64,000 nucleotides of DNA from Escherichia coli (lineage in GTDB: Bacteria > Pseudomonadota > Gammaproteobacteria > Enterobacterales > Enterobacteriaceae): NCBI RefSeq assembly GCF_030013205.1, contig NZ_CP122648.1. One strand, written 5' to 3'. The notes beneath the pieces were generated by a model that saw nothing but the letters and a program-made list of their open reading frames with translations, ran no database searches and was not told where the DNA came from. Position 1 is the stretch's first letter. Every line of letters starts with the position of its first letter. Below, one piece after another: positions 4,464 to 60,492 of this stretch. Made by a program: the position numbers and the translations under genes.

Positions 4464-4494
4464 ATTTCCCCCTCATGATGAGGGGGCTTTTTTT
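4464..4494. terminator. Bidirectional rho-independent terminator between yehA and rcnB
   Basis: GC-rich inverted repeat CCCCCTCAT/ATGAGGGGG followed by T-run; abuts rcnB stop codon. Confidence 0.6.
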
Positions 4495-4831
4495 AGCGAT
4501 GATAAAAAATCTCACCGTCGTAGGCTTTAATGATTTTACCGTCGGTGTCGCTGATCAACACGTACGCGCCACCCATATAGGTCCAGTGCGTCCCGGCATC
4601 AGGCGCGGGCAGGTTACGTAACTGCCACTGCTTAATGTTGTACTCATCGGTGCGGTACATCTCTGGGACGGTATCGCCTGGTTTGAAATGCTTAAAGTCA
4701 GCAATGAAACTGCTTAACTCATACTTAGAAATTCCCGAGGTATTGGTCGAACCCGCGGTGGCTGGTGCGGCCCAGGCGGCACTGGTAACCAGCAAAAGCG
4801 CACCCAGCAACATCTTATTTTTAATGGTCAT
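4493..4831 (-). CDS. rcnB: Periplasmic nickel/cobalt homeostasis protein
   Basis: 112 aa from internal ATG (MTIKNKMLLGALLLVTSAAWA…, signal peptide); the 172-aa ORF-track version is an upstream extension. Confidence 0.85.
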   Translation of the reverse strand: MTIKNKMLLGALLLVTSAAWAAPATAGSTNTSGISKYELSSFIADFKHFKPGDTVPEMYRTDEYNIKQWQLRNLPAPDAGTHWTYMGGAYVLISDTDGKIIKAYDGEIFYHR

Positions 4832-5049: not shown

Positions 5050-5874
5050 TTATCGCATTATGCCCATGAAGCCATGTACGCCCATATACACACCAACTAA
5101 GCCAATCAACAGACTGGAAAAATAGGGGGCGCGTTTAGCGAGAGTGTTAAATCCGCTCCAGCGTTTTGCGACCTGCTGAACGCTGATTGCTGCGCCAACG
5201 CCTACGGTGACAAGCGTTAACGCCAGGCCAATGCTGAAACTGACGACCAGTGTTGCGCCCAGTGTCAGGGCTTTCAACTGAATGCATATCAACAGCACGG
5301 TAATTGCTGCCGGGCAGGGGATAAGGCCACCGGTTAAGCCAAATAGCAAAATTTGCCAGTTGGTGACCTCTCTACCATCAAAGCGTCGTTTAATGTCATT
5401 GGCATGGGCTCGTGCATGGGCATCCTGATACTCGCCATGTTCGTGATGGTGATGATGTCCATGGTCGTGGTGATCTTCGTGATCGTGGTGATGATGCTCA
5501 TGATCATGCTCGTGCATATTCTCCAGCCAGTTGCGTTCGCCGCGCCAGGTACGCCAGAACATCCAGAACGCGGTGCCAATAATGATCACTGCGGAAATCA
5601 ACTGGAGCCACGGTTCTGCTGATTGAGCAGTAAAGCGCTTGCTGATCACCATCCCGCCAAAGGCAATCAACCAGACCACTGCGGTATGCGAAATGGTTGC
5701 TGCCAGTCCGAGCATCACCGCCTGTTTAATGGTGCCTTTGATGGCGATGATAAACGCCGCCATCATCGTTTTTGAGTGCCCTGGTTCCAGGCCATGAAGC
5801 GCACCAAGTAAGATGGCGCTGGGGATGAAGAACCAGGCGTTTCCTTGCTGAAGAAGAGTGGTAAATTCGGTCAT
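5050..5874 (-). CDS. rcnA: Nickel/cobalt efflux permease
   Basis: 274 aa membrane protein with His-rich loop (HEHDHEHHHHDHEDHHDHGHHHHHEH). Confidence 0.9.
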   Translation of the reverse strand: MTEFTTLLQQGNAWFFIPSAILLGALHGLEPGHSKTMMAAFIIAIKGTIKQAVMLGLAATISHTAVVWLIAFGGMVISKRFTAQSAEPWLQLISAVIIIGTAFWMFWRTWRGERNWLENMHEHDHEHHHHDHEDHHDHGHHHHHEHGEYQDAHARAHANDIKRRFDGREVTNWQILLFGLTGGLIPCPAAITVLLICIQLKALTLGATLVVSFSIGLALTLVTVGVGAAISVQQVAKRWSGFNTLAKRAPYFSSLLIGLVGVYMGVHGFMGIMR

Positions 5875-5911
5875 GATAATAATTCTTAGTATTAATTCGG
5901 CAATCTTATTC

Positions 5912-5946
5912 TACTCCCCCCCAGTACCTGATACTACCCCCCAGTA
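5912..5946. promoter_or_regulatory. Two tandem RcnR operator sites in rcnA-rcnR divergent intergenic region
   Basis: TACT-C7-AGTA at 5912-5926 and TACT-A-C6-AGTA at 5932-5946; matches the published TACT-G6-N-AGTA RcnR site read on the other strand. Confidence 0.7.
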
Positions 5947-5994
5947 GATTAATAGTGCTATGATTTTTCATATTCTTGTTAACCAGGTGTTGCC

Positions 5995-6267
5995 ATGTCT
6001 CATACCATCCGTGATAAACAGAAACTGAAAGCGCGTGCCAGTAAGATTCAGGGCCAGGTCGTGGCGCTCAAGAAAATGCTCGACGAGCCGCACGAATGCG
6101 CTGCAGTTTTACAACAGATTGCTGCTATCCGTGGCGCGGTAAACGGTCTGATGCGGGAAGTGATTAAAGGTCATCTGACGGAACACATCGTTCACCAGGG
6201 GGATGAGCTAAAACGTGAAGAAGATCTGGATGTCGTTCTGAAGGTGCTGGATTCTTATATCAAATAA
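5995..6267 (+). CDS. rcnR: Ni(II)/Co(II)-responsive transcriptional repressor (CsoR/RcnR family)
   Basis: 90 aa; sequence recognised as RcnR; divergent from rcnA. Confidence 0.9.
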
Positions 6268-6359
6268 TTTATTAACGCGATTGTAAAACTGCGGTTTTTA
6301 CTCGTTTACAACGCGTGCGCTGGACATTACCATCCTCCTCTGCGATTTATCATCGCAAT

Positions 6360-6437
6360 CAAACGACTCGGGGTGCCCTTCTGCGTGAAGGCTGAGAAAT
6401 ACCCGTATCACCTGATCTGGATAATGCCAGCGTAGGG
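6360..6437 (+). repeat. Left copy of 78-bp direct repeat: TPP-riboswitch aptamer segment without downstream expression platform (att-like)
   Basis: Identical base-for-base to 15250-15327; sequence diverges immediately on both sides. Confidence 0.85.
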
Positions 6438-6520
6438 GGCCAAAATAGTCTTGAAAATTATGTGGTTGTATCTCTTTTTGACCATAAATCATGCTGTTAA
6501 GGTACAAAAAGGGGTCGTTT

Positions 6521-7828
6521 ATGAGGTCAAGAACTCTCCCATACACATTTCAGCGAAACGGTAATTACTATCTACAAATCCGGCTTTCGGATGGTCGGAT
6601 ATACAAAAAATCACTTTTTACTGACAGTTATCGCGAAGCATCGGCGTTGATGATTGGCCTTACTCCGCACATTCCTTTCGTTAAATCACTCGCTACTCCG
6701 TTGCCGCAATTTAATAAGTTTGTTTCAAACTTGATCGCTTCGTCACGTAACGTAATGATTCCGTTGCCACTCCCTCAGCAATTGAACAATATTTCTAAAG
6801 AAGTTTTGCAGCTTCAACCACCAGCCAAACCGGAAAAGGTGCTAACACTTGCTGATGCGTGGGCTATGTACAAGGAGGAAAGAGGTCGAAATTGGACAAA
6901 ATCGATCTCAATGGCAAATGAGCGTTATATGGAGGTATTGCTTGTTGTCTTGGGAAAAGAAACAGACGTAACGGCAATCACCAAACAAGATATTAAGCGA
7001 GTAATGGAAACTGTCGAAAACTTACCAAAGCGTGTAGTGCAACCGTATAGGTCAATGACTATTCAGCAACTAATCGAATGTGATGATGTGCTGCCAGAGG
7101 ATTTAGTTGGTGCTGAGGCTGTACATAAGCACCTTAAAATCTACAAATCGTTATTCAAAACATTTCTGACTGAAAACAAAGATATTCTATCTAAGTCTCC
7201 GACTGATGGAATAGTAGCGGCACCATCCAAAGCTAGGTTTGGTGCATACAGTGCAGCAGAAATGAAAAAATTTGTAGGATGGGCACTAAAGCAGCCTGAT
7301 GGATGGCAGAAGTGGATCACTTTGTTGTTGGCGTACACAGGAGCCAGAAGAGGTGAGATTGCTAAACTGGAGAAGTCGCAGATCAAATTTGATGAAGATA
7401 GCCAGCGGCACTATCTTCTGATCGCGGAAAGAAGGCTGGGTAAAACTGAGAATGCTACAAGACAGGTAGTGATTCATCCCAAACTGATTGAGTGGGGGTT
7501 TCTGGATTTTGTTAACCGCCAATGGAAAGAGAAAATCTTTTCGGAAGTCTCAGGTCGAAATATGTCAAAGATAGGTAAAGTTCTTTCAGATGTTCGTGAT
7601 CAGCTTGATATTCCTTATCTTGATGATTATGGGCAGCGGCGCTTGGTGCATAGTTTCCGGCATACTATGATTTCTACTTGTTTAGCTGGTTGGGTGAGTA
7701 ATTTGGCGCATCTGCAACAGGTGGTAGGTCATGAGAAAAGCGGTTTAGGGATTACCAGACGCTATTTGCACTCTTTTCCTTTACGTTCAATTTGTTACGT
7801 GATTGATGGTTTGGACTGGTTAAATTGA
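6521..7828 (+). CDS. Tyrosine site-specific integrase (phage/P4-like integrase family)
   Basis: C-terminal catalytic motifs TGARRGE, HSFRHT (HxxR) and RRYLH (Tyr nucleophile); ATG 6521 with AGGGG RBS preferred over 6491. Confidence 0.85.
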   Translation: MRSRTLPYTFQRNGNYYLQIRLSDGRIYKKSLFTDSYREASALMIGLTPHIPFVKSLATPLPQFNKFVSNLIASSRNVMIPLPLPQQLNNISKEVLQLQPPAKPEKVLTLADAWAMYKEERGRNWTKSISMANERYMEVLLVVLGKETDVTAITKQDIKRVMETVENLPKRVVQPYRSMTIQQLIECDDVLPEDLVGAEAVHKHLKIYKSLFKTFLTENKDILSKSPTDGIVAAPSKARFGAYSAAEMKKFVGWALKQPDGWQKWITLLLAYTGARRGEIAKLEKSQIKFDEDSQRHYLLIAERRLGKTENATRQVVIHPKLIEWGFLDFVNRQWKEKIFSEVSGRNMSKIGKVLSDVRDQLDIPYLDDYGQRRLVHSFRHTMISTCLAGWVSNLAHLQQVVGHEKSGLGITRRYLHSFPLRSICYVIDGLDWLN

Positions 7829-7869
7829 TGTGAGCCTCGTGAGAAAGGGAATAAATAGAGAAAATCAAG

Positions 7870-7897
7870 TTGTTACCTCATTGGCAGGGGATATAAT
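7870..7897 (+). promoter_or_regulatory. Candidate sigma70 promoter for nuclease gene
   Basis: TTGTTA-16 bp-TATAAT, ~30 bp upstream of ATG 7928; followed by near-palindrome TGACCATATTGTCA (possible operator). Confidence 0.45.
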
Positions 7898-7927
7898 GAC
7901 CATATTGTCATCTTGAGGAACAAAAGT

Positions 7928-9499
7928 ATGGTTGCTCGTTCTAACCTTGTAAATTTAGATGCACTGATTAAGCGTGCTGATTTAGGTTTAAAGATCCAAG
8001 ATAACTCTTCATTTGAAACGCTAAACAGTATTCCTGCAAGAGAATTGAAATCAGGAAGTGGAATTGCTGCGCTTCTGAGAAAACCAGATTTCCAGCGTGA
8101 AACAAATCATTGGGGGCCTGAGCAGGTTGTATCGCTTCTCGAATGCTACATCAATGGTGATTTGATACCTTCCGTTATTCTTTGGCGGTCTTCAACCCAT
8201 CTTTTTGTGATCGATGGTGGTCATCGTTTAAGTGCGTTACGTGCTTGGGTTGAAGATGATTATGGCGACGGTCATATATCCCATCAACTTTTTGGGCATG
8301 ATATTCCTCGTGAACAACGCCGCGCTGCAGATAGAACGAGAAAGCTTGTGAAGGAGAGGGTCGGTAGCTGGGAATATTATCAGAAGTTGCTTGCCGATGA
8401 TGCTTCATTGACCGAGGAACAGCAGAGAAGAATCAGCGTATTAACATCTCGTGGAATCTCAGTCCAATGGGTAGTGGGTGATGTAGATAAGGCAGAAACT
8501 TCATTTTTTAACATCAATATGAAGGGAACTCCTCTTGATGCTATCGAAGAGATGCTTCTAAAAAATCGCAAGAAAAGTATTCCGATAGCAACCCGAGCAA
8601 TTATTCGTGCCGGTAGAGGTCATCGCTATTGGTCGGGGTTTGATCAGAGCATTGCCCAGCAACTTGAAGATAAATCTGCAAAGCTGCATCGTTTGCTGTT
8701 CGAACCTGAAGTTGATCGCCCTATTAAAACTCTTGATCTTCCATTAGGCGGTTCTAGGGGGGTCAGGACAGCGATCCAAGTTTTGAAAGATTTCTTACTG
8801 ATCACTGATTGCAACCAGAATGGTGTTTTGAAAAAAATCGAAGCCTACCCTGATGATGCGTCGGGTGCTGATACGTTAAGAATCCTTTCCAAAGCCACAT
8901 CATTAAGCAATAGAATTACAGGCAATGGCGATGGTAGCTTGGGGCTTCATCCAGCGATTTATTTTTATGGTCCGACTGGAATCCACTCAACGCCAATGTT
9001 TCTAGGAACTGTGCTACTGGTGGCAAAACAACTCTCTAACAATAATGGTCAATTCTTTAAAGACTTCACAACAATCAGATCTAGGCTTGAGAGAATAATG
9101 ATCGAATTTAAGGACTTGATCGCAATGATAGTACAAAAACCAGGTAGTAATGTCCGAGTGGCTCGCTACTGTGATTTTTTAAATGCGGTGATCAAATCAC
9201 TCAAGCAGGGAGAGAATATTGATGAGAGTAAGCTTATCGAGCTGGCCGAATTGGAGGGGAGAATACTCTCTGGAGATTTTAAGAGAACATCAGCAAAAAT
9301 CAGCGATGAACAAAAAAGTAAGGTGTTCATTGACGTGGCTCTGCGCAACGCTTTGAAATGTCCGATTTGCCAAGGTTACCTTGATACTGAAAAGTCAGTT
9401 TCTTATGATCATATCGTACGTGTCCGTGAGGGAGGAGATGGTAATTCTGACAATGTACAGTTGACACACCCTTACTGTAACCAGTCAGTGAAGTGTTAA
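7928..9499 (+). CDS. ParB-like (DUF262/DGQHR-type) N-terminal domain fused to C-terminal HNH endonuclease; candidate defence/type IV restriction-like nuclease
   Basis: N-terminal motifs PDFQRETNHW and VIDGGHRLSAL; C-terminal CPICQ…YDHIVRV…NSDNVQLTHPYCN (HNH with Cys ligands); GAGGAA RBS before ATG 7928. Confidence 0.6.
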   Translation: MVARSNLVNLDALIKRADLGLKIQDNSSFETLNSIPARELKSGSGIAALLRKPDFQRETNHWGPEQVVSLLECYINGDLIPSVILWRSSTHLFVIDGGHRLSALRAWVEDDYGDGHISHQLFGHDIPREQRRAADRTRKLVKERVGSWEYYQKLLADDASLTEEQQRRISVLTSRGISVQWVVGDVDKAETSFFNINMKGTPLDAIEEMLLKNRKKSIPIATRAIIRAGRGHRYWSGFDQSIAQQLEDKSAKLHRLLFEPEVDRPIKTLDLPLGGSRGVRTAIQVLKDFLLITDCNQNGVLKKIEAYPDDASGADTLRILSKATSLSNRITGNGDGSLGLHPAIYFYGPTGIHSTPMFLGTVLLVAKQLSNNNGQFFKDFTTIRSRLERIMIEFKDLIAMIVQKPGSNVRVARYCDFLNAVIKSLKQGENIDESKLIELAELEGRILSGDFKRTSAKISDEQKSKVFIDVALRNALKCPICQGYLDTEKSVSYDHIVRVREGGDGNSDNVQLTHPYCNQSVKC

Positions 9500-9887
9500 A
9501 ATCACGTTTCACTTTTCGTTGTCATTTGTATCGAACGTTTTTGAGAAAGGGCAGGATTGCGAGCGAGTTACCAGCGTAAACAGATAAATACTGTTTTCGT
9601 AAGCCCACTGTCGCCGCTTTCCGCTCTGCAATTTTTGCTTGTCGGGGGGCTAATTGTGGCTTTGCTTGCCATAACATTAAAAGTCAGTAATATACTGAAA
9701 ATTAATACAATACTTTTCATATATCCCATTGAATATTCAGTTCATTGCCAAATAGCAAGCGGAGCACTCTCTCTTTAACGTTGTAGTAACTTAGTTGAAC
9801 AATTTTATAATATAATTTGTCTAAGTTGGTTGATGTATCAAAGCCTTTTTCTGAAGAATGAATTGGCGTGATTACTCACGCCAGATT

Positions 9888-10235
9888 TTAAATTTCAGAA
9901 CATAGGCTAAGCGTATAGACAGCAGTTTGCCCATCATTGTTAGTCGGTCTCATAACGAAAACAGGCTGACTCCCATTATCAATGTATGTGACTGCAACCC
10001 CTCCATCAGGTGTGGCATACATTTTTGCGATGCTTTTTTGACCTATAAAATCAAGTCTCCAAGTCTTACCACCAAGATGTATTGTCATTTTTTTATCTTG
10101 TATATCAAAAGTTGAATCTACAGAAACTTTCTGACTTCCCGAGTCAATATGACCTTCCTGTATTGCTTTACAGGAAAAGGTTGTGGCGTGGCCCATCACT
10201 GGAATTAACAAAGCGGCAAATACTAGTTTTTTCAT
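9888..10235 (-). CDS. Small secreted/periplasmic hypothetical protein (115 aa)
   Basis: Internal ATG with GGGAG RBS; signal peptide MKKLVFAALLIPVMGHA; no family recognised. Confidence 0.5.
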   Translation of the reverse strand: MKKLVFAALLIPVMGHATTFSCKAIQEGHIDSGSQKVSVDSTFDIQDKKMTIHLGGKTWRLDFIGQKSIAKMYATPDGGVAVTYIDNGSQPVFVMRPTNNDGQTAVYTLSLCSEI

Positions 10236-10345
10236 TTGTCTCCCTTGATGTGTCAAATGGATGGTGATGCTAATAATACATGATTGATTCAAAATGTCAC
10301 GATTAGTGCGTGGTTAATTGGTGCGTCAAATTGCATCTTTGTGCC

Positions 10346-10810
10346 ATGCGAAAGAATCTGAGATACCTTTTTGGACAACGAGTAAAAGAGTTCCGTATAG
10401 CTATTGGCTTAAGCCAAGAGGCCTTTGCAGATCGGTGTGGTTTTGCTCGTAGTTATATGAGTCGAATTGAGCGTGGTTGCTCTAATGCATCTCTTGATGC
10501 AATTGAGGTTCTGGCTGACGCTTTGCGTATTGAGCCTTGGCAGTTACTAGCTTCTGATTCAAGGAAAACTGATGATCAGGAGGTACTTGTTCCTTATGCT
10601 GCAGATGGGTCGTGTTTTCATCCAGGATTGGCAAGTACTCGCGATGGTTCGTTTAGAGTAGGGGAAAAATCAGCCCAGAAACGTTTCAGTTCGTTCAATG
10701 ACGCTCTCGAATACCTTCGTGGAATGGAAACCGCGAAGTGGCGTAGGCCTAATGCTAGTGGTAATTGGGGAATTGTATCTGCGGTTAAATGGGATCGACT
10801 GAATCAATAA
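10346..10810 (+). CDS. XRE-family (Cro/CI-type) HTH transcriptional regulator with uncharacterised C-terminal domain
   Basis: HTH segment LSQEAFADRCGFARSYMSRIERG; start codon uncertain (GTG 10310 or ATG 10346). Confidence 0.55.
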   Translation: MRKNLRYLFGQRVKEFRIAIGLSQEAFADRCGFARSYMSRIERGCSNASLDAIEVLADALRIEPWQLLASDSRKTDDQEVLVPYAADGSCFHPGLASTRDGSFRVGEKSAQKRFSSFNDALEYLRGMETAKWRRPNASGNWGIVSAVKWDRLNQ

Positions 10811-10976
10811 GATATCAGTAATTTTCGGGCCACTCCACAAGGCAATAAGTGGCTTAGTGGTGATTATCGAAGGGGAATACAAGCGAGCACCTAGGCACCA
10901 TTGCAAGAACCGCTCAACGCTGAGATCAGCAAGCCCCGATTTCTGCCGACCGTCCCTGTCAAATATCAAGGAGGCA

Positions 10977-11516
10977 TTACGCCTCCTCTTCTTCCTTCTT
11001 AATTCGCTGTACCGTCGAAGGAGCAACATTAAAGATCTCGGCGGTTTTACGCACTGACACGCCATCAGAAAGGGCTTTCTTTATACCTTCTCGATCCACT
11101 GCCTTACCTTTACCACGCTTTCTAGGATTGACGGCTTGCGCTTCTCGTTTACGTTCTAACATCAGTTCACGTTCACACGTTGCCACTGCCGACAACATAG
11201 TAAGCATCATTTTTCCCATCGCGCTTGTAATGTCTGCAATGATCCCTTCTTTGTGAAAGCGAACAATTACACCACGATTATTAAGTTGTTCCACTAAGGC
11301 AAGAATGTCTAAGGTGTTACGCCCTAAACGATCAAGAGAGTGGACGTGTAAGGTGTCGCCTTCTCTCAGATAGGCTAAACACGCTTGTAAGCCTGGGCGG
11401 TTAGTGTCTTTACCAGACAGCTTATCTTCAAAGACTTTGTCGAGAGTTAGTCCTGCAAGCTGGCGATCAGTATTTTGATCTACAGTGCTCACACGCTTAT
11501 AGCCGATATTGCTCAT
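10977..11516 (-). CDS. Serine recombinase (resolvase/DNA invertase family)
   Basis: N-terminus MSNIGYKRVSTVDQNTDRQ (catalytic Ser motif), C-terminal HTH; ATG 11516 with AAGGGGA RBS. Confidence 0.8.
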   Translation of the reverse strand: MSNIGYKRVSTVDQNTDRQLAGLTLDKVFEDKLSGKDTNRPGLQACLAYLREGDTLHVHSLDRLGRNTLDILALVEQLNNRGVIVRFHKEGIIADITSAMGKMMLTMLSAVATCERELMLERKREAQAVNPRKRGKGKAVDREGIKKALSDGVSVRKTAEIFNVAPSTVQRIKKEEEEA

Positions 11517-11564
11517 AAAATCCCCTTGATGTATCGATTTGGCACCACTCCAATGCAAATGAGT

Positions 11565-11660
11565 GTGTTGTATTCATTTGGTCTGTTTCAAGCCTTATGG
11601 ATACGGAATATTACACGATTTAGCTGTATTCATTTGGTATGCCTAATGGATACGCAGGGG
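11565..11660. promoter_or_regulatory. res-like recombinase binding sites upstream of the serine recombinase gene
   Basis: Two similar subsites TGTATTCATTTGGT…ATGGATACG with internal imperfect dyad symmetry, directly upstream of recombinase start. Confidence 0.4.
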
Positions 11661-11769
11661 GATAGATTAAATGGTGTTCTGTTTATACAGGTTTATTTGT
11701 TAGATCAACAAGTTGGCATTTCTAAACAGATGTTTGAACGTTGCCAAATGCCTTGACAACACAAGAAAA

Positions 11770-12720
11770 TGGCTTGCTATGAACGCATTACACGAAATAA
11801 GGCTATAAAAACAAAATAAATTTTAAAATTTGCACAAAAACGAGAAAACTCGTTCGACAAATAATAGATTGGTTTTTAATCGACAATTTCTGACAATTTC
11901 TGATGGTGCTCTGTAAACCGCATTACACAAGGCTTTGCGAAAGTGATGTAAAAGTGAAGAAAGTTAACATTGCACTTTGAAGCCATTTTTCATTGGATTT
12001 TTTAGTAGGGAATTACACAGGGAATAGAGAGCATTATTCTATGATTTACACAGGGAATATAGGGGATTATGGCACACACATAGAAAGGCATTACACAGAG
12101 TGAGTGCTATGTGATGATTGGTAGTAACGGTAGGTCACTGTGAGCTACCCCCCACAGAATTCTGTTACCCCTATCAAGTCTAACAGGGGTTTATAAAGAA
12201 TAATAAACCGATGATACCCCTATCAATATTGATACCCCTATTAGCTTTGATATGACTACCCCTATCAAAACTGATACCCGATAAGAATAAGTTAATAAGA
12301 ATAATTAAATAATATTCTTTATATCTATATATATGATCTTTTTGCCTTCCGGCGTTAGCTTCACTCTCTGGCAAGCAGCCTTACTCCGCTATCTTTGGGC
12401 TTCGTGGCTGGCCCGTTCCGCTCACACCGAAAGCAAAGCGTTACTCTTCTTCGTGTAACTATCGTTGGCGGTAACGCCACACGAAGAAATACTATTGCGC
12501 TGTGCGCAGTAAGAGTAATCACCTAACCAATCACCTGATTGCTTACGTGTTAACTCTCTCTAACTCTTAATTACCCTCCTACATTTAATAACTCTATTAT
12601 TCTCTGTAGTTGTGTAATTACTCGAAGAGAGAGCGGCTAAAGCTCAATTACACTCTGCTTTCCTCGTGTAATTTCACTAAGCCTCAATACAATTTCACTT
12701 CCTACATTCTGTAGTCGTGT
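11770..12720. repeat. Iteron-like repeat cluster in 1.9 kb ORF-free AT-rich region (putative origin or regulatory hub)
   Basis: Five direct copies of (C)ATTACACAG at ~11777-12100, four copies of TACCCCTATCAA at ~12163-12270, reverse-orientation GTGTAAT copies at ~12451-12715. Confidence 0.5.
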
Positions 12721-13503
12721 AATAGTTTTCGGTGGGGAAAAGCCAGAGGCGACACCGAAAGAAAATTCTGATCTTATTAATCTTATCTATCTTAGTTAAT
12801 CTTCTTACTTACTTTATCTACTTTATTATTAATAATAGCTTTATAAGCTCTCTGTGTAGCTCTCTGACGCAAGAAACAGCATTCAGGAAGGGAATCACCT
12901 TAGAAAAGTGTTCTTTGCGTCATAATGTGTTTTATGAAGGATTCAGAGGTGTTTCATAACACAAGGTATAGAGGATATTTTAGTTAATTAAAAATAAGGG
13001 GGCTAAATGCTTCTCTAACAGCATTAAGCAGGGTAGAGAATGGAAATGCATTGCCTACGTATATATAAACTCACTACAAGGCTTTACAGAGCGTTTTATA
13101 AAGTAACTAATCTAAGAACTCTCTGTTTTATATCTATCATCATCTTTCCATCATCTAACAAATACAAAATAAGCCCCTTAAATAAGCCTCTGGCGAGCTA
13201 AACAGCCATTACATAAGGGAATGTATTTCTTTTATCAAAACTTCGTTAGAACGCGTTTTAGAGCGTTTTATACAATAAGGAAGAATAGGACCGTCCGCAA
13301 GAGCACGAATTGCTAAGAAAGAATGTAAACGCATGAAAAATATCAGATTTTTTATGAAAATATATTGACAAATGTTTCTTTATATGTAATAATAGGTATT
13401 AGAGAGACAGAAAAACATTCTTCTCTAAATAATCAAAATCAATGCACTTTGAAGCCGTCAGGCTTGCAAGGTGTTTTTCTTTTAACTGAATAAGGAGTTT
13501 TTT

Positions 13504-13692
13504 ATGAAATGGTTTACACCGGAACACGTCGTAGAGGCATTTAAAAAAGGTGAGCTAACACGACATCAAGTAGTAATGAATCGTAATATGGCAAGGAGTC
13601 GAGGTTATCCAGAGCGTGAAAAATGTTTCGATGCAGCACTAAAAATTATTGATAAATTAAGAAAAAATGAAAAAGGATCTGAAACAGAGTAA
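13504..13692 (+). CDS. Hypothetical small protein (62 aa)
   Basis: AAGGAG RBS upstream of ATG; no family recognised. Confidence 0.35.
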   Translation: MKWFTPEHVVEAFKKGELTRHQVVMNRNMARSRGYPEREKCFDAALKIIDKLRKNEKGSETE

Positions 13693-13711
13693 AGAAGAGA
13701 AGGAGAAAACT

Positions 13712-13882
13712 ATGAGCGAAACTACAGAAAAGAAAAGACAACCACGCACTTGCTTTCATATTCCTGATGAAGTATTTCAGGTGTTGTTTAAAGAAGCCAG
13801 AAGTAAACGTATCACTGTTACAGATTACATTCTTGATATGTTGAAAAGAGAGGCTGAAACACTCTCAAATAAAAGCAAGTGA
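13712..13882 (+). CDS. Small ribbon-helix-helix (CopG/Arc-like) DNA-binding protein
   Basis: 56 aa; AAGGAGAAAAC RBS; N-terminal RTCFHIPDEVFQVLFKEA…ITVTDYILDML pattern typical of RHH. Confidence 0.45.
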   Translation: MSETTEKKRQPRTCFHIPDEVFQVLFKEARSKRITVTDYILDMLKREAETLSNKSK

Positions 13883-13936
13883 TTTTTATCACCATAGTAG
13901 CGCCGTAGAGCGTGATTACATCAAGGAGCTTTTTTA

Positions 13937-14599
13937 ATGATTAAACATACAAAACCTTTCTTAGGAATAGATTATGACTTACTAGCAATCACTTCCCTAG
14001 TGATTAACGGCAAAACAAAAGAAGTAAAACTACATCATAAGATCATTTATTCTTATTTGTTAAGTTTATCTGGCACATATCAAAAGGTAACACCATCTTT
14101 GAAAGGTATTGGTGAGCGGTTAGGAGTAGGTACAGATCAGACGGTACGCCGTCATATCAAAGATCTTGTTTCTTTTGGATGGTTGAAGATTGAGGAAAGG
14201 GCAGGTAGCACAAATGCTTATATTGTCCTTCCTTATGAACAAGAAGCCCAGACACAACAAGAAGCTACCGTTAAAGCTGTTCAGGAACAGCTTCCCCCTA
14301 CGGAAGATAATAAAGAGTTTTCTTTTGATGTTCTTGATGATTGGGATGCGCCTTTACCTTGGGAAATGGAAGAAACGCCATCTGATGAAAAGGTAGCTAA
14401 TGATAATGAGGAGGATGTGTTAGAGAATTTTGCCTCTCTTATCATCCAGGAGAAACACACAAGAACAGGAGGGGCATCATTTATAGAATTTGCAACATCG
14501 TTAGCCTGTAAGCACAGGATAAAGCTACCAAATGGTATTGAGGCATATTTTGCTAAGAAACATCCCAAAGTATATGAAGACTTTGATATTCCATTTTAA
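13937..14599 (+). CDS. HTH (winged-helix-like) protein with acidic linker; possible iteron-binding replication or regulatory protein
   Basis: 220 aa; AAGGAG RBS; HTH-like segment LKGIGERLGVGTDQTVRRHIKDLVSFGWL; sits beside iteron region. Confidence 0.45.
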   Translation: MIKHTKPFLGIDYDLLAITSLVINGKTKEVKLHHKIIYSYLLSLSGTYQKVTPSLKGIGERLGVGTDQTVRRHIKDLVSFGWLKIEERAGSTNAYIVLPYEQEAQTQQEATVKAVQEQLPPTEDNKEFSFDVLDDWDAPLPWEMEETPSDEKVANDNEEDVLENFASLIIQEKHTRTGGASFIEFATSLACKHRIKLPNGIEAYFAKKHPKVYEDFDIPF

Positions 14600-14794
14600 T
14601 AAGGAGGGTTATGATTCAATATTTAGTAAAAAATAAAGTAGAATTCATCTATTCCACTCTCTAAAAATCTATCTGTGTAATATAAAATGAAAACATTATG
14701 GTATTAGCTATGTATTGGTTATTGTTCTTTCTGGCCTTAGAAACATATGCAAGTAAGTCTGGAAAACGAAAGTAATATATTGATGATTTGTTTG

Positions 14795-15052
14795 TTATAA
14801 CTTCGTGGTGTCAAGTCCAGCAGTTTTGAGTCGCTCGGTAAGATTTCTCATTTTGCTGAACTCTGTACCAAAGCTGGCTTTAAGTCCTACACCTTCGCAA
14901 AACTCTTTTGCCGTGACGTTTTTCAGATGGTCAACATATTTGGTCATCTGGAGGTGCATTTCCATCGTTTGGCTATTTCGTGATGCGCTGCTAATGGCTT
15001 GCTTAATGTTCTCGTAGATCTGGGTTCTGTCATTGTTTATCCCACCTATCAA
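14795..15052 (-). CDS. Hypothetical protein (weak call; no in-frame ATG at ORF start)
   Basis: 85-aa ORF begins at TTG; first in-frame ATG would give 56 aa; no family recognised. Confidence 0.25.
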   Translation of the reverse strand: MIGGINNDRTQIYENIKQAISSASRNSQTMEMHLQMTKYVDHLKNVTAKEFCEGVGLKASFGTEFSKMRNLTERLKTAGLDTTKL

Positions 15053-15249
15053 ATTTAGAAAAATAATATTAATTAGCTAATTAATATAATCAATGGTTTT
15101 CACCATCTGAATGATAGCCGTTAATTGTTTCTTTTTCATTCCTTCTATGGGGTACAAAATGGGGTACACAGAGAAGAAGCAATTAATGGAGGCGAGCTTG
15201 CATCTGCAAGCCACTTCCCCTAAGCTGGCACAAAATATAGAGATTCAAC

Positions 15250-15327
15250 CAAACGACTCGGGGTGCCCTTCTGCGTGAAGGCTGAGAAATACCCGTATCA
15301 CCTGATCTGGATAATGCCAGCGTAGGG
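15250..15327 (+). repeat. Right copy of 78-bp direct repeat (part of intact thiM riboswitch)
   Basis: Identical to 6360-6437. Confidence 0.85.
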
Positions 15328-15379
15328 AAGTCACGGACCACCAGGTCATTGCTTCTTCACGTTATGGCAGGAGCAAACT
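15250..15379 (+). promoter_or_regulatory. thiM TPP (THI-box) riboswitch: aptamer plus expression platform
   Basis: Sequence CGACUCGGGGUGCCCUUCUGCGUGAAGGCUGAGAAAUACCCGUAUCACCUGAUCUGGAUAAUGCCAGCGUAGGGAAGUC… recognised as thiM riboswitch; directly precedes thiM start. Confidence 0.9.
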
Positions 15380-16168
15380 ATGCAAGTCGACCTGCTGAGT
15401 TCCGCGCAATCTGCGCACGCGTTACACCTTTTTCACCAACATTCCCCTCTTGTGCATTGCATGACCAATGATGTGGTGCAAACTTTTACTGCCAATACCT
15501 TACTGGCGCTCGGTGCATCGCCAGCGATGGTTATCGAAACCGAAGAAGCCAGTCAGTTTGCGGCTATCGCCAGTGCGTTGCTGATTAACGTTGGCACACT
15601 GACGCAGCCACGCGCACAGGCGATGCGTGCCGCCGTTGAACAGGCAAAACGCTCTCAAACACCCTGGACGCTTGATCCAGTAGCGGTTGGTGCACTCGAC
15701 TATCGCCGCCGTTTTTGTCTGGAACTTCTGTCTCATAAGCCAACCGCCATACGTGGTAATGCTTCGGAAATCATGGCATTAGCTGGCATTGCTAATGGCG
15801 GACGGGGAGTGGATACCACTGACGCCGCAGCTAATGCGATACCCGCTGCACAAACACTGGCACGGGAAACTGGCGCAATCGTCGTGGTCACAGGCGAGGT
15901 GGATTATGTTACCGATGGCCATTGCACCGTTGGCATTCACGGTGGCGATCCGCTAATGACCAAAGTGGTAGGAACTGGCTGTGCATTATCGGCGGTTGTC
16001 GCTGCCTGTTGTGCGCTACCAGGCGATATGCTGGAAAATGTCGCATCTGCCTGTCACTGGATGAAACAAGCCGGAGAACGCGCAGTCGCCAGTAGCGAGG
16101 GGCCAGGCAGTTTTGTTCCACATTTCCTTGATGCGCTCTGGCAATTGACGCAGGAGGTGCAAGCGTGA
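15380..16168 (+). CDS. thiM: Hydroxyethylthiazole kinase
   Basis: 262 aa, recognised ThiM sequence; riboswitch upstream. Confidence 0.95.
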
Positions 16169-31174: not shown

Positions 31175-31261
31175 AAAAAATAAGCCCGTGTAAGGGAGAT
31201 TACACAGGCTAAGGAGGTGGTTCCTGGTACAGCTAGCATTTTATGGGTTATGTTTTTCAGC
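31175..31261 (-). ncRNA. cyaR: CyaR (RyeE) Hfq-dependent sRNA
   Basis: Minus-strand sequence GCUGAAAAACAUAACCCAUAAAAUGCUAGCUGUACCAGGAACCACCUCCUUAGCCUGUGUAAUCUCCCUUACACGGGCUUAUUUUUU matches CyaR including terminator hairpin. Confidence 0.85.
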
Positions 31262-31345
31262 GAAACGGATGATAACCTTAATAAATGCAGCTGTATGTGA
31301 TCGGTTTCTAAGAATTTTCCATCCGGGAAAAATAATCGAAATTAA

Positions 31346-44577: not shown

Positions 44578-44717
44578 AAACGGGAAAGCCCCTCCCGAGG
44601 AAGGGGCCATAAATAAGGAAAGGGTCATGATGAAGCTACTCATCATCGTGGTGCTCTTAGTCATTAGCTGGCCAGCTTACTAAGACTACCAGGGCGGGGG
44701 AAACCCCGCTCTACCCT
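44578..44717 (-). ncRNA. sibB: Sib antisense sRNA (antitoxin) over ibs unit 1; boundaries approximate
   Basis: Minus-strand TTGACA-17-TACTTT promoter downstream of ibs stop; hairpin plus U-rich tract upstream of ibs start. Confidence 0.5.
44627..44683 (+). CDS. ibsB: Type I toxin Ibs (18 aa, MMKLLIIVVLLVISWPAY)
   Basis: Exact small hydrophobic ORF with tandem ATG. Confidence 0.8.
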   Translation: MMKLLIIVVLLVISWPAY

Positions 44718-44905
44718 CACTCCTGAAAGTATGCCTTCACGATAAGATTGTCAATCTGCAGGCTTTGCAGTCTGCGATCCTGCCAGCAAATATTCTTTGC
44801 GAGACGTTACGCAATAATCACACTGGAAACTATTTTATCCGCAAGTCAGCGATAGACTGCATTCAGGGCGAAAGGAGGTAAGCCGACGATTTCAGCGGGA
44901 CGCTG

Positions 44906-45045
44906 AAACGGGAAAGCCCCTCCCGAGGAAGGGGCCTTAAATAAGGAAAGGGTCATGATGAAGATACTCATCATCGTGGTGCTCTTAGTGATTAGCTACC
45001 CAGCATACTAAGACTACCAGGGCGGGGGAAACCCCGCTCTACCCT
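44906..45045 (-). ncRNA. Sib antisense sRNA over ibs unit 2; boundaries approximate
   Basis: Minus-strand TTGACA-17-TAATTT promoter; same architecture as unit 1. Confidence 0.5.
44955..45011 (+). CDS. Type I toxin Ibs variant (18 aa, MMKILIIVVLLVISYPAY)
   Basis: Middle repeat unit; differs from flanking Ibs peptides at L4I and W15Y. Confidence 0.75.
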   Translation: MMKILIIVVLLVISYPAY

Positions 45046-45234
45046 CACTCCTGAAATTATGCCTTCACGATAAGATTGTCAATCTGCAGGCTTTGCAGTC
45101 TGCGATCCCGCCAGCAAATATTCTTTGCGAGTCGTTACGCAATAATCACAGAGGAAACTATTTTGTTCACGCGTTAGCGATAGACTGCATTCAGGGCGAA
45201 AGGAGGTAAGCCGACGATTTCAGCGGGACGCTGA

Positions 45235-45374
45235 AACGGGAAACCCTCTCCCGGAGAAGAGGGCTTTTAATAAGGAAAGGGTTATGATGAAGCACGTCAT
45301 CATACTGGTGATACTCTTAGTGATTAGCTTCCAGGCTTACTAAGAACACCAGGGGGAGGGGGAAACCTCTCCCT
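45235..45374 (-). ncRNA. sibA: Sib antisense sRNA over ibs unit 3; boundaries approximate
   Basis: Minus-strand TTGACA-17-TAATTT promoter downstream of ibs stop. Confidence 0.5.
45284..45343 (+). CDS. ibsA: Type I toxin Ibs (19 aa, MMKHVIILVILLVISFQAY)
   Basis: Exact small hydrophobic ORF. Confidence 0.8.
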   Translation: MMKHVIILVILLVISFQAY

Positions 45375-45563
45375 AACCCTCACTCCTGAAATTATGTCAC
45401 TCCGCCCTTAGTGTCAATCGACGGCTCTTCGTTCTTGCGAGGCGAATAGCAAAATTTTCTGCGCCGCCGGGCCTAATTCTGAAAGTTTCTTCGTTTGCTC
45501 TTATTTCATTATTGCAATCGGTATGATACCGGACCTCAATAATTCTCTAAGAAAGGATTTCTT

Positions 45564-60012: not shown

Positions 60013-60480
60013 AGTAAGTACAAAACCTATTCGTTGTATGACAAATGTCACAATTCGATCATGGATAAATCGGGGCAAAAATGCAATGTTGCAGCACTAT
60101 TTATCTCATATTATTTGAGGTTTATAACCTCACATTATCCCTTAATTAAAAGTGGTAATAATAAAACATTATTTAAGAAATATCGCATGTGGAGACACTA
60201 TATTAAATATTGTCAATCTAAAGAAACTCCTAAAAACCATATTGAATGACACTTAATATAATTCTTAAAAATAGCCAATTGCCGAATTGTTACCTTGCCT
60301 GCTATTCCGTTAGCTGTAACACTTCCTCCTGCATTATTGGAGAGCCAATATTCAATTACCATAATGTCACCTTATATTCGGAAGTTAATTTTCGCAATAA
60401 CCCTTTCTCATCAACGACTGTATGTTGAGAGGGTTTTAAAAATTAAGCTAAATCAGTGTATTGGTAGCTAAAAAGCCAGG

Positions 60481-60492
60481 GGCGGTAGCGTG
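60481..60492 (+). promoter_or_regulatory. ops element (RfaH recruitment site, JUMPstart) in colanic-acid operon leader
   Basis: Exact GGCGGTAGCGTG ~180 bp upstream of wza. Confidence 0.7.

Follow-up and report, generated by a model that had tools for sequence, protein, structure and literature searches.

The question raised by this locus is whether two C-rich palindromes in the gap between a pair of divergent genes form an operator that puts nickel and cobalt efflux under the control of these metals, or whether they have some other origin or another protein as their main partner. The window, by which we mean the whole 64-kb stretch of Escherichia coli DNA analysed here, carries the two palindromes within the 120-bp gap between the divergent genes rcnA and rcnR. 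With a probability of about 0.96, we conclude that they are the RcnR operator shared by the divergent promoters of rcnA(B) and rcnR. No observation in the data speaks against this. The sequence, its non-randomness, its identity with K-12, the gene identities and the conservation were computed; binding, stoichiometry and metal response are taken from the literature, and the promoter hexamers we infer. The two sites and the spacer between them are the following.

5912-5926, plus strand: RcnR site 1, rcnA-proximal, TACTCCCCCCCAGTA, of the form TACT-C7-AGTA
5927-5931: spacer CCTGA, 5 nt, between sites 1 and 2
5932-5946, plus strand: RcnR site 2, rcnR-proximal, TACTACCCCCCAGTA, of the form TACT-A-C6-AGTA

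On the plus strand the order of elements is TTATTC, TACTCCCCCCCAGTA, CCTGA, TACTACCCCCCAGTA and GATTAATAG. In the sense of rcnA, sites 1 and 2 read TACTGGGGGGTAGTA and TACTGGGGGGGAGTA; on that strand site 1 is TACT-G7-AGTA, that is TACT-G6-N-AGTA with N=G, and site 2 is TACT-G6-T-AGTA. Both sites consist of inverted TACT/AGTA half-sites 7 nt apart that enclose an unbroken G/C tract of at least 6. The distance from site 1 to site 2, start-to-start and equally centre-to-centre, is 20 bp with a gap of 5 nt, and a repeat finder returns the pair as a direct repeat whose two 15-nt copies are 93% identical and start 20 apart. The 5-nt spacer CCTGA thus sets a 20-bp register of approximately two helical turns, which places the sites on one face of the helix, as PMC5146963 also states. 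An earlier note on this DNA had placed the pair at 5912-5946, and these coordinates are exact on the sequence read; its description of the sites as 20 bp apart is correct as a start-to-start distance, the gap itself being 5 nt. The note also wrote both sites as TACT-C6/7-AGTA. Two sites are indeed present, but site 2 is TACT-A-C6-AGTA, and the half-sites are separated by 7 nt in both.

The exact pattern TACTNCCCCCCAGTA has 2 matches in the 64-kb window, and none of 100 dinucleotide-preserving shuffles contains it. A search that tolerates as many as 2 mismatches still returns just sites 1 and 2 (0.26 matches expected), and so does the relaxed pattern TACT-N7-AGTA (0.33 expected). No further RcnR-type site, at 2 mismatches or fewer or as TACT-N7-AGTA, was found in the 64-kb window, and there is thus no sign of extra regulon members there. 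The empty shuffles count against a reading in which a C-rich palindrome was duplicated by chance or slippage and the sites have no part in regulation. Such a duplication would fit the 20-bp direct repeat made by the two copies, and also the shifts of unit number by whole units seen in nature, which point to a recombination-prone array. It does not fit a block that is near-invariant over Enterobacterales and one Vibrio while its flanks drift, nor the published binding of RcnR to the identical sequence, and we consider it very improbable. A G-quadruplex or i-motif at the operator was rejected by inspection, given that there are two C-tracts and that four are needed for an intramolecular structure.

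The genes on both sides of the RcnR sites are those of the nickel and cobalt efflux system.

4493..4831, minus strand: rcnB, a 112-aa periplasmic accessory protein downstream of rcnA (open reading frame; position as in M217 and K-12)
5050..5874, minus strand: rcnA, a 274-aa Ni/Co efflux protein with a His-rich loop, the repressed target (NF007454, 560 bits)
5995..6267, plus strand: rcnR, a 90-aa Ni(II)/Co(II)-responsive repressor (NF011613, 197 bits; K-12 identity)

The NCBIfam cutoffs are 195 bits for the Ni/Co efflux transporter and 138 bits for the RcnR equivalog; the rcnB reading frame (4493..4831) has no match in NCBIfam. Where identical DNA occurs in other E. coli genomes, RefSeq makes the same rcnA and rcnR calls, and together with the two family scores this bears out the divergent rcnA-rcnR flanks that had been proposed from the letters alone. 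After rcnA come rcnB and yehA, in the order found in E. coli K-12 and in strain M217. The RcnR translation contains His3, Cys35, His60 and His64, which from the literature we take to be its metal-sensing residues, as well as the RASK motif. The RASK motif of RcnR is mentioned in PMC3902906. The length of rcnA differs among strains: the window and K-12 have 825 nt, strain 131 has 840 nt and 2010C-3142 has 858 nt, and the difference presumably sits in the His/Asp-rich loop repeat (window 5334-5470).

The operator region is almost exactly that of E. coli K-12. An alignment of 151 bases with MG1655, from which the published operator comes, has 3 differences, none of them in the operator. The sole intergenic difference is T5907 (G in K-12), 5 nt outside site 1; the other two fall in the coding ends of rcnA and rcnR, and positions 5908-5994 are identical. 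Both 15-nt sites, the 5-nt spacer, RcnR itself (90/90 residues identical) and the gene order yehA-rcnB-rcnA / rcnR are shared with K-12, so that the published model transfers directly. K-12 lacks the 8.9-kb island that occupies the thiM riboswitch downstream of rcnR in the window, an island that is clear of the operator. The same arrangement is general in the species: of 5426 complete E. coli genomes, 5361 contain the 171 bases that surround the sites, always annotated rcnA / rcnR, and the 65-nt core 5908-5972 is exact in 4810 (90%) of the 5345 complete genomes matched by that shorter query.

What is new in this analysis is comparative support only. We scanned one genome per species with the RcnR protein and obtained 80 loci, which span Escherichia, Citrobacter, Salmonella, Raoultella, Kosakonia, Rahnella, Hafnia, Erwinia, Edwardsiella, Morganella and one Vibrio. 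In 78 of the 80, rcnA lies divergently upstream of rcnR, mostly across a gap of 118-125 bp. Upstream of rcnR, one or more TACT-N6-9-AGTA sites are present in all species loci but one (79/80), and 65/80 have the exact arrangement TACT-C7-AGTA, 5 nt, TACT; site 1 taken singly is an exact C7 site in at least 65/80. The loci were aligned by anchoring on site 1, and the conservation of site 1 is therefore partly by construction. Outside the anchor, among the 65 species loci, A5908 is conserved at 100%, 5909-5911 at 80-91%, A5931 at 100% and 5936-5946 at 94-100%, and positions 5947-5948 less so, at 78-91%. The spacer keeps its length across species and varies in sequence except at A5931. Information content is near 2 bits over 5908-5948 and mostly 0.0-0.7 bits in the flanks and spacer, and the sharp fall beyond 5907 and 5949 delimits the conserved block as 5908-5948. 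This block takes in -10-like elements of both promoters.

RcnR reportedly contacts some 50 bp of flanking DNA non-specifically and wraps the DNA, a finding of Iwig & Chivers from 2009. PMC5146963 alludes to such flanking-DNA contact and wrapping. The published RcnR motif is TACT-G6-N-AGTA, as given in PMC7055735, PMC3902906, PMC7105576 and PMC5146963, and both window sites match it exactly. PMC5146963 describes the E. coli RcnR sites as bound by one apo-RcnR tetramer each on the same helix face. Binding of RcnR to the E. coli operator sequence is published (Iwig & Chivers 2009, as relayed in PMC7055735, PMC3902906 and PMC5146963), and the citing papers credit the E. coli operator to Iwig & Chivers 2009 and to Blaha et al. 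2011, Biochimie 93:434. The exact motif match and the identity of both operator and RcnR with K-12 uphold the earlier note's assignment of the pair to RcnR, and it was right to call this known biology, the operator being one already characterised in E. coli and here in canonical form. PMC7105576 describes reuse of the RcnR operator in synthetic cobalt-inducible circuits.

A close published relative is the Salmonella enterica rcnRAPro (Osman et al. 2016; PMC5016687), which also has a tandem RcnR pair in a divergent intergenic region. Its 35-bp probe has the same span as window 5912-5946, and its spacer and flanks differ from those of the window. According to PMC5016687, two Salmonella RcnR tetramers bind the 35-bp two-site probe with a KDNA of about 1.5e-7 M; metal weakens the binding, KDNA rising to at least 5.9e-6 M with Ni(II) and to at least 1.5e-5 M with Co(II). 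Both site sequences of the window recur in the Salmonella diarizonae locus, and S. arizonae has the variant sites TACT-C6-T-AGTA and TACT-A-C5-AGTA. More distant in the same protein family are the CsoR type 2 operators, such as those of Streptomyces lividans and B. subtilis, which share a G-tract pseudopalindrome with a GTA dyad as high-affinity anchor. They have two short interrupted G/C tracts and bind two tetramers per site, whereas the RcnR sites, which belong to type 1, have a tract without a break and take a single tetramer apiece.

The E. coli FrmR operator at Pfrm is likewise of tandem type 1, with a G/C tract in AT-rich inverted half-sites and one tetramer per site, and it suggests a different reading of the window sites, as mainly the target of another CsoR/RcnR-family protein such as FrmR, or of another regulator, with RcnR secondary. 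FrmR is a paralogue of RcnR, and the window RcnR scores 76 bits on the FrmR model, a score that lies under that model's cutoff; FrmR too uses tandem type 1 sites (PMC5146963). The Pfrm sites, however, are ATAC-(9 bp GC)-GTAT, with other half-sites and another tract length than the RcnR sites, and their effector is formaldehyde, not a metal. Since the window sites also co-occur with rcnR-rcnA in 78/80 species loci, have no further match in the 64-kb window, and belong to an operator with published rcnR-dependent repression, we give this reading next to no weight.

How RcnR on these sites would act on both genes depends on the position of the two promoters, for which we have the following candidates.

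5908..5913, minus strand: candidate rcnA -10, TAGAAT, sharing 2 nt with the outer TACT half-site of site 1 (from conservation)
5945..5950, plus strand: alternative -10-like TAGATT, which overlaps site 2 at its outer AGTA half-site and mirrors TAGAAT (from the outer inverted repeat)
5956..5964, plus strand: candidate extended -10 of rcnR, TGcTATGAT, 9 nt after site 2 (from inspection and conservation)

TAGAAT (5913->5908) is the likely -10 of rcnA, with a start near 5901; the hexamer is exact in 48/79 loci, and nearly all the remaining ones keep TAnnnT. For rcnR, 55/79 species loci have a TGnTAnnnT element within 22 nt past the last site, in 48 cases with the 9-nt offset seen in the window, and the -35 belonging to TGcTATGAT (5956-5964) would fall in the C-tract of site 2. 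At the alternative position, 5945-5950, 43/79 loci have TAGAAT, TAGATT or another TAnnnT. An outer inverted repeat (5900-5915 / 5943-5958; 16 nt, 81% complementary) brackets both sites and makes the 59-bp region pseudo-symmetric, with the -10-like TAGAAT and TAGATT facing outward on each side. In a generic sigma-70 and terminator scan of 5750-6100, matches were no commoner than in shuffles. The consensus promoter scan being weak, promoter placement rests on conservation and inspection. One pair from the same region, TTGCCG-16-TATTAT ending 2 nt before the rcnA ATG, is a weak match and probably irrelevant. Whichever rcnR -10 holds, the -35 and spacer regions of both promoters would lie inside the operator, which would explain the simultaneous repression of rcnA and rcnR.

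Taking the tandem pair as the RcnR operator, the course of regulation would be as follows. When surplus Ni or Co is absent, one apo-RcnR tetramer is expected on each TACT-G6-N-AGTA site, where it would read the TACT/AGTA inverted half-sites together with the A-form-like shape that the unbroken G/C tract adopts. Since the sites probably overlie the -10 and the spacer/-35 of both promoters, bound RcnR would block RNA polymerase and repress the efflux pump as well as its own gene. Ni(II) or Co(II) on RcnR (at His3, Cys35, His60, His64 and the N-terminus) would then lower its DNA affinity by more than an order of magnitude, and metal-bound RcnR would be released, allowing rcnA-rcnB and rcnR to be transcribed. 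For the window, this reading provides the correct annotation of the cis-element by which the two metals regulate their efflux. The comparative data delimit the block 5908-5948, suggest the positions of both promoters, and document forms that differ in tract length and in having 1-3 units.

Two units are the commonest form of the operator, and one or three also occur. Single-site operators are found in Erwinia psidii (L077), Edwardsiella anguillarum (L078) and Enterobacter sp. CC120223-11 (L056), and Morganella (L081-L085) has one intact site and one decayed. Nine loci of the Kosakonia/Phytobacter group (L054, L057, L058, L061-L063, L068, L069, L074) have a third unit, AACT-C7-AGTT, about 21 bp after site 2; the stretch concerned lies approximately 105 to 45 nt upstream of rcnR. 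Operator variants within E. coli are seen at loci L003, L004 and L087-L092. E. coli 97_3250 (O26-type) has undergone a precise deletion of one 20-bp unit that leaves a single TACT-C7-AGTA, and FDAARGOS_1058 has a C-to-T break in site 2. A C-tract one base longer or shorter occurs in about 3% of complete E. coli genomes: site 1 has C6 in 126 of them (about 2%), O111 STEC and the reference genome O111:H- 11128 included, and site 2 has C7 in 29. Sequencing error may account for some of these tract-length variants; the recurrence of C6 in 126 genomes, among them the finished genome O111:H- 11128, indicates that at least part of the C6 variation is real.

We tentatively describe the operator as a modular array, of 1-3 units of 20 bp with tracts from C5 to C8, whose variants could set different Ni/Co efflux thresholds by strain or species; from the sequence comparisons this is a possibility, although a doubtful one. 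If the variants do alter repression, they would represent a natural tuning of the metal-efflux set-point by operator architecture, and they could serve as ready test cases for the repression strength of tandem type 1 sites. A related but distinct proposal is that the C-tracts are at the same time a slippage-prone switch, a contingency locus in which tract variants shift the efflux set-point. The complete genomes with variant tracts, C6 at site 1 and C7 at site 2, are what such a switch would produce, but the exact core is kept in 90% of genomes, at 6-7 nt the tracts are short for phase variation to be efficient, and some of the variants may be homopolymer sequencing errors. The window, too, has the canonical tract lengths, and we find a switch of this type decidedly unlikely. 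The window itself carries the canonical RcnR operator, which the variation does not affect.

In Escherichia whittamii Sa2BVA5 (L013, approximately 1285-1437), the whole rcnA-rcnR intergenic region and the first rcnA codons are absent; the rcnA coding sequence abuts the rcnR ATG, and the operator and both promoters are thus deleted. In E. coli ETEC4085 (L006, 1694-2499), an IS5-family element has inserted at about window position 5883, between operator and rcnA start codon, and parts rcnA from its promoter and operator.

Downstream of rcnR, the window has two Rfam TPP riboswitch aptamers, at 6359-6454 (61.9 bits) and 15249-15345 (71.2 bits), within which lies an 82-nt direct repeat (6356-6437 / 15246-15327) that is 99% identical. 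K-12 and M217 have a single TPP riboswitch copy between rcnR and thiM and no island. The approximately 8.9 kb between the TPP copies (window 6356-15327) have a GC content of 0.33-0.45, against about 0.5-0.56 outside, and the genes of this segment are a tyrosine integrase, a protein with GmrSD_N and HNH domains, two HTH proteins and a serine resolvase.

6491-7828: tyrosine integrase reading frame of the island
7913-9499: 528-aa protein that has GmrSD_N (DUF262) and, C-terminally, an HNH domain
10310-10810 and 13937-14599: HTH proteins of the island
10977-11558, minus strand: serine resolvase of the island
15380-16168: thiM

The 8.9-kb segment looks like an integrative island that uses the riboswitch aptamer as its attachment site, and the 528-aa GmrSD_N/HNH protein, judged by its domains, looks like a defence nuclease. 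A literature search on a thiM-riboswitch attachment site or island found no relevant paper. The island integrase lies beside the riboswitch in 146/5426 E. coli genomes, and 39 of the 146 have the same GmrSD gene, which suggests a hotspot with variable cargo; the other genomes with the integrase evidently hold different cargo. The integrase reading frame stands where thiM would be, following the native thiM promoter and the left (hybrid) aptamer copy, and its start is more likely the second ATG (6521), with an AAGGA Shine-Dalgarno-like sequence. The thiM gene itself now follows the island-borne riboswitch copy, at a distance of 8.9 kb from its native promoter. Thiamine-dependent expression of the integrase, or altered expression of thiM, is a possibility that this layout raises.

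Elsewhere in the window, several other RNA elements score above their Rfam gathering scores: three tandem copies of the SIB RNA (the Sib antitoxin sRNA) at 44612-45417 on the minus strand, the CyaR sRNA at 31178-31263, also on the minus strand, and a JUMPstart element at 60454-60492 on the plus strand.
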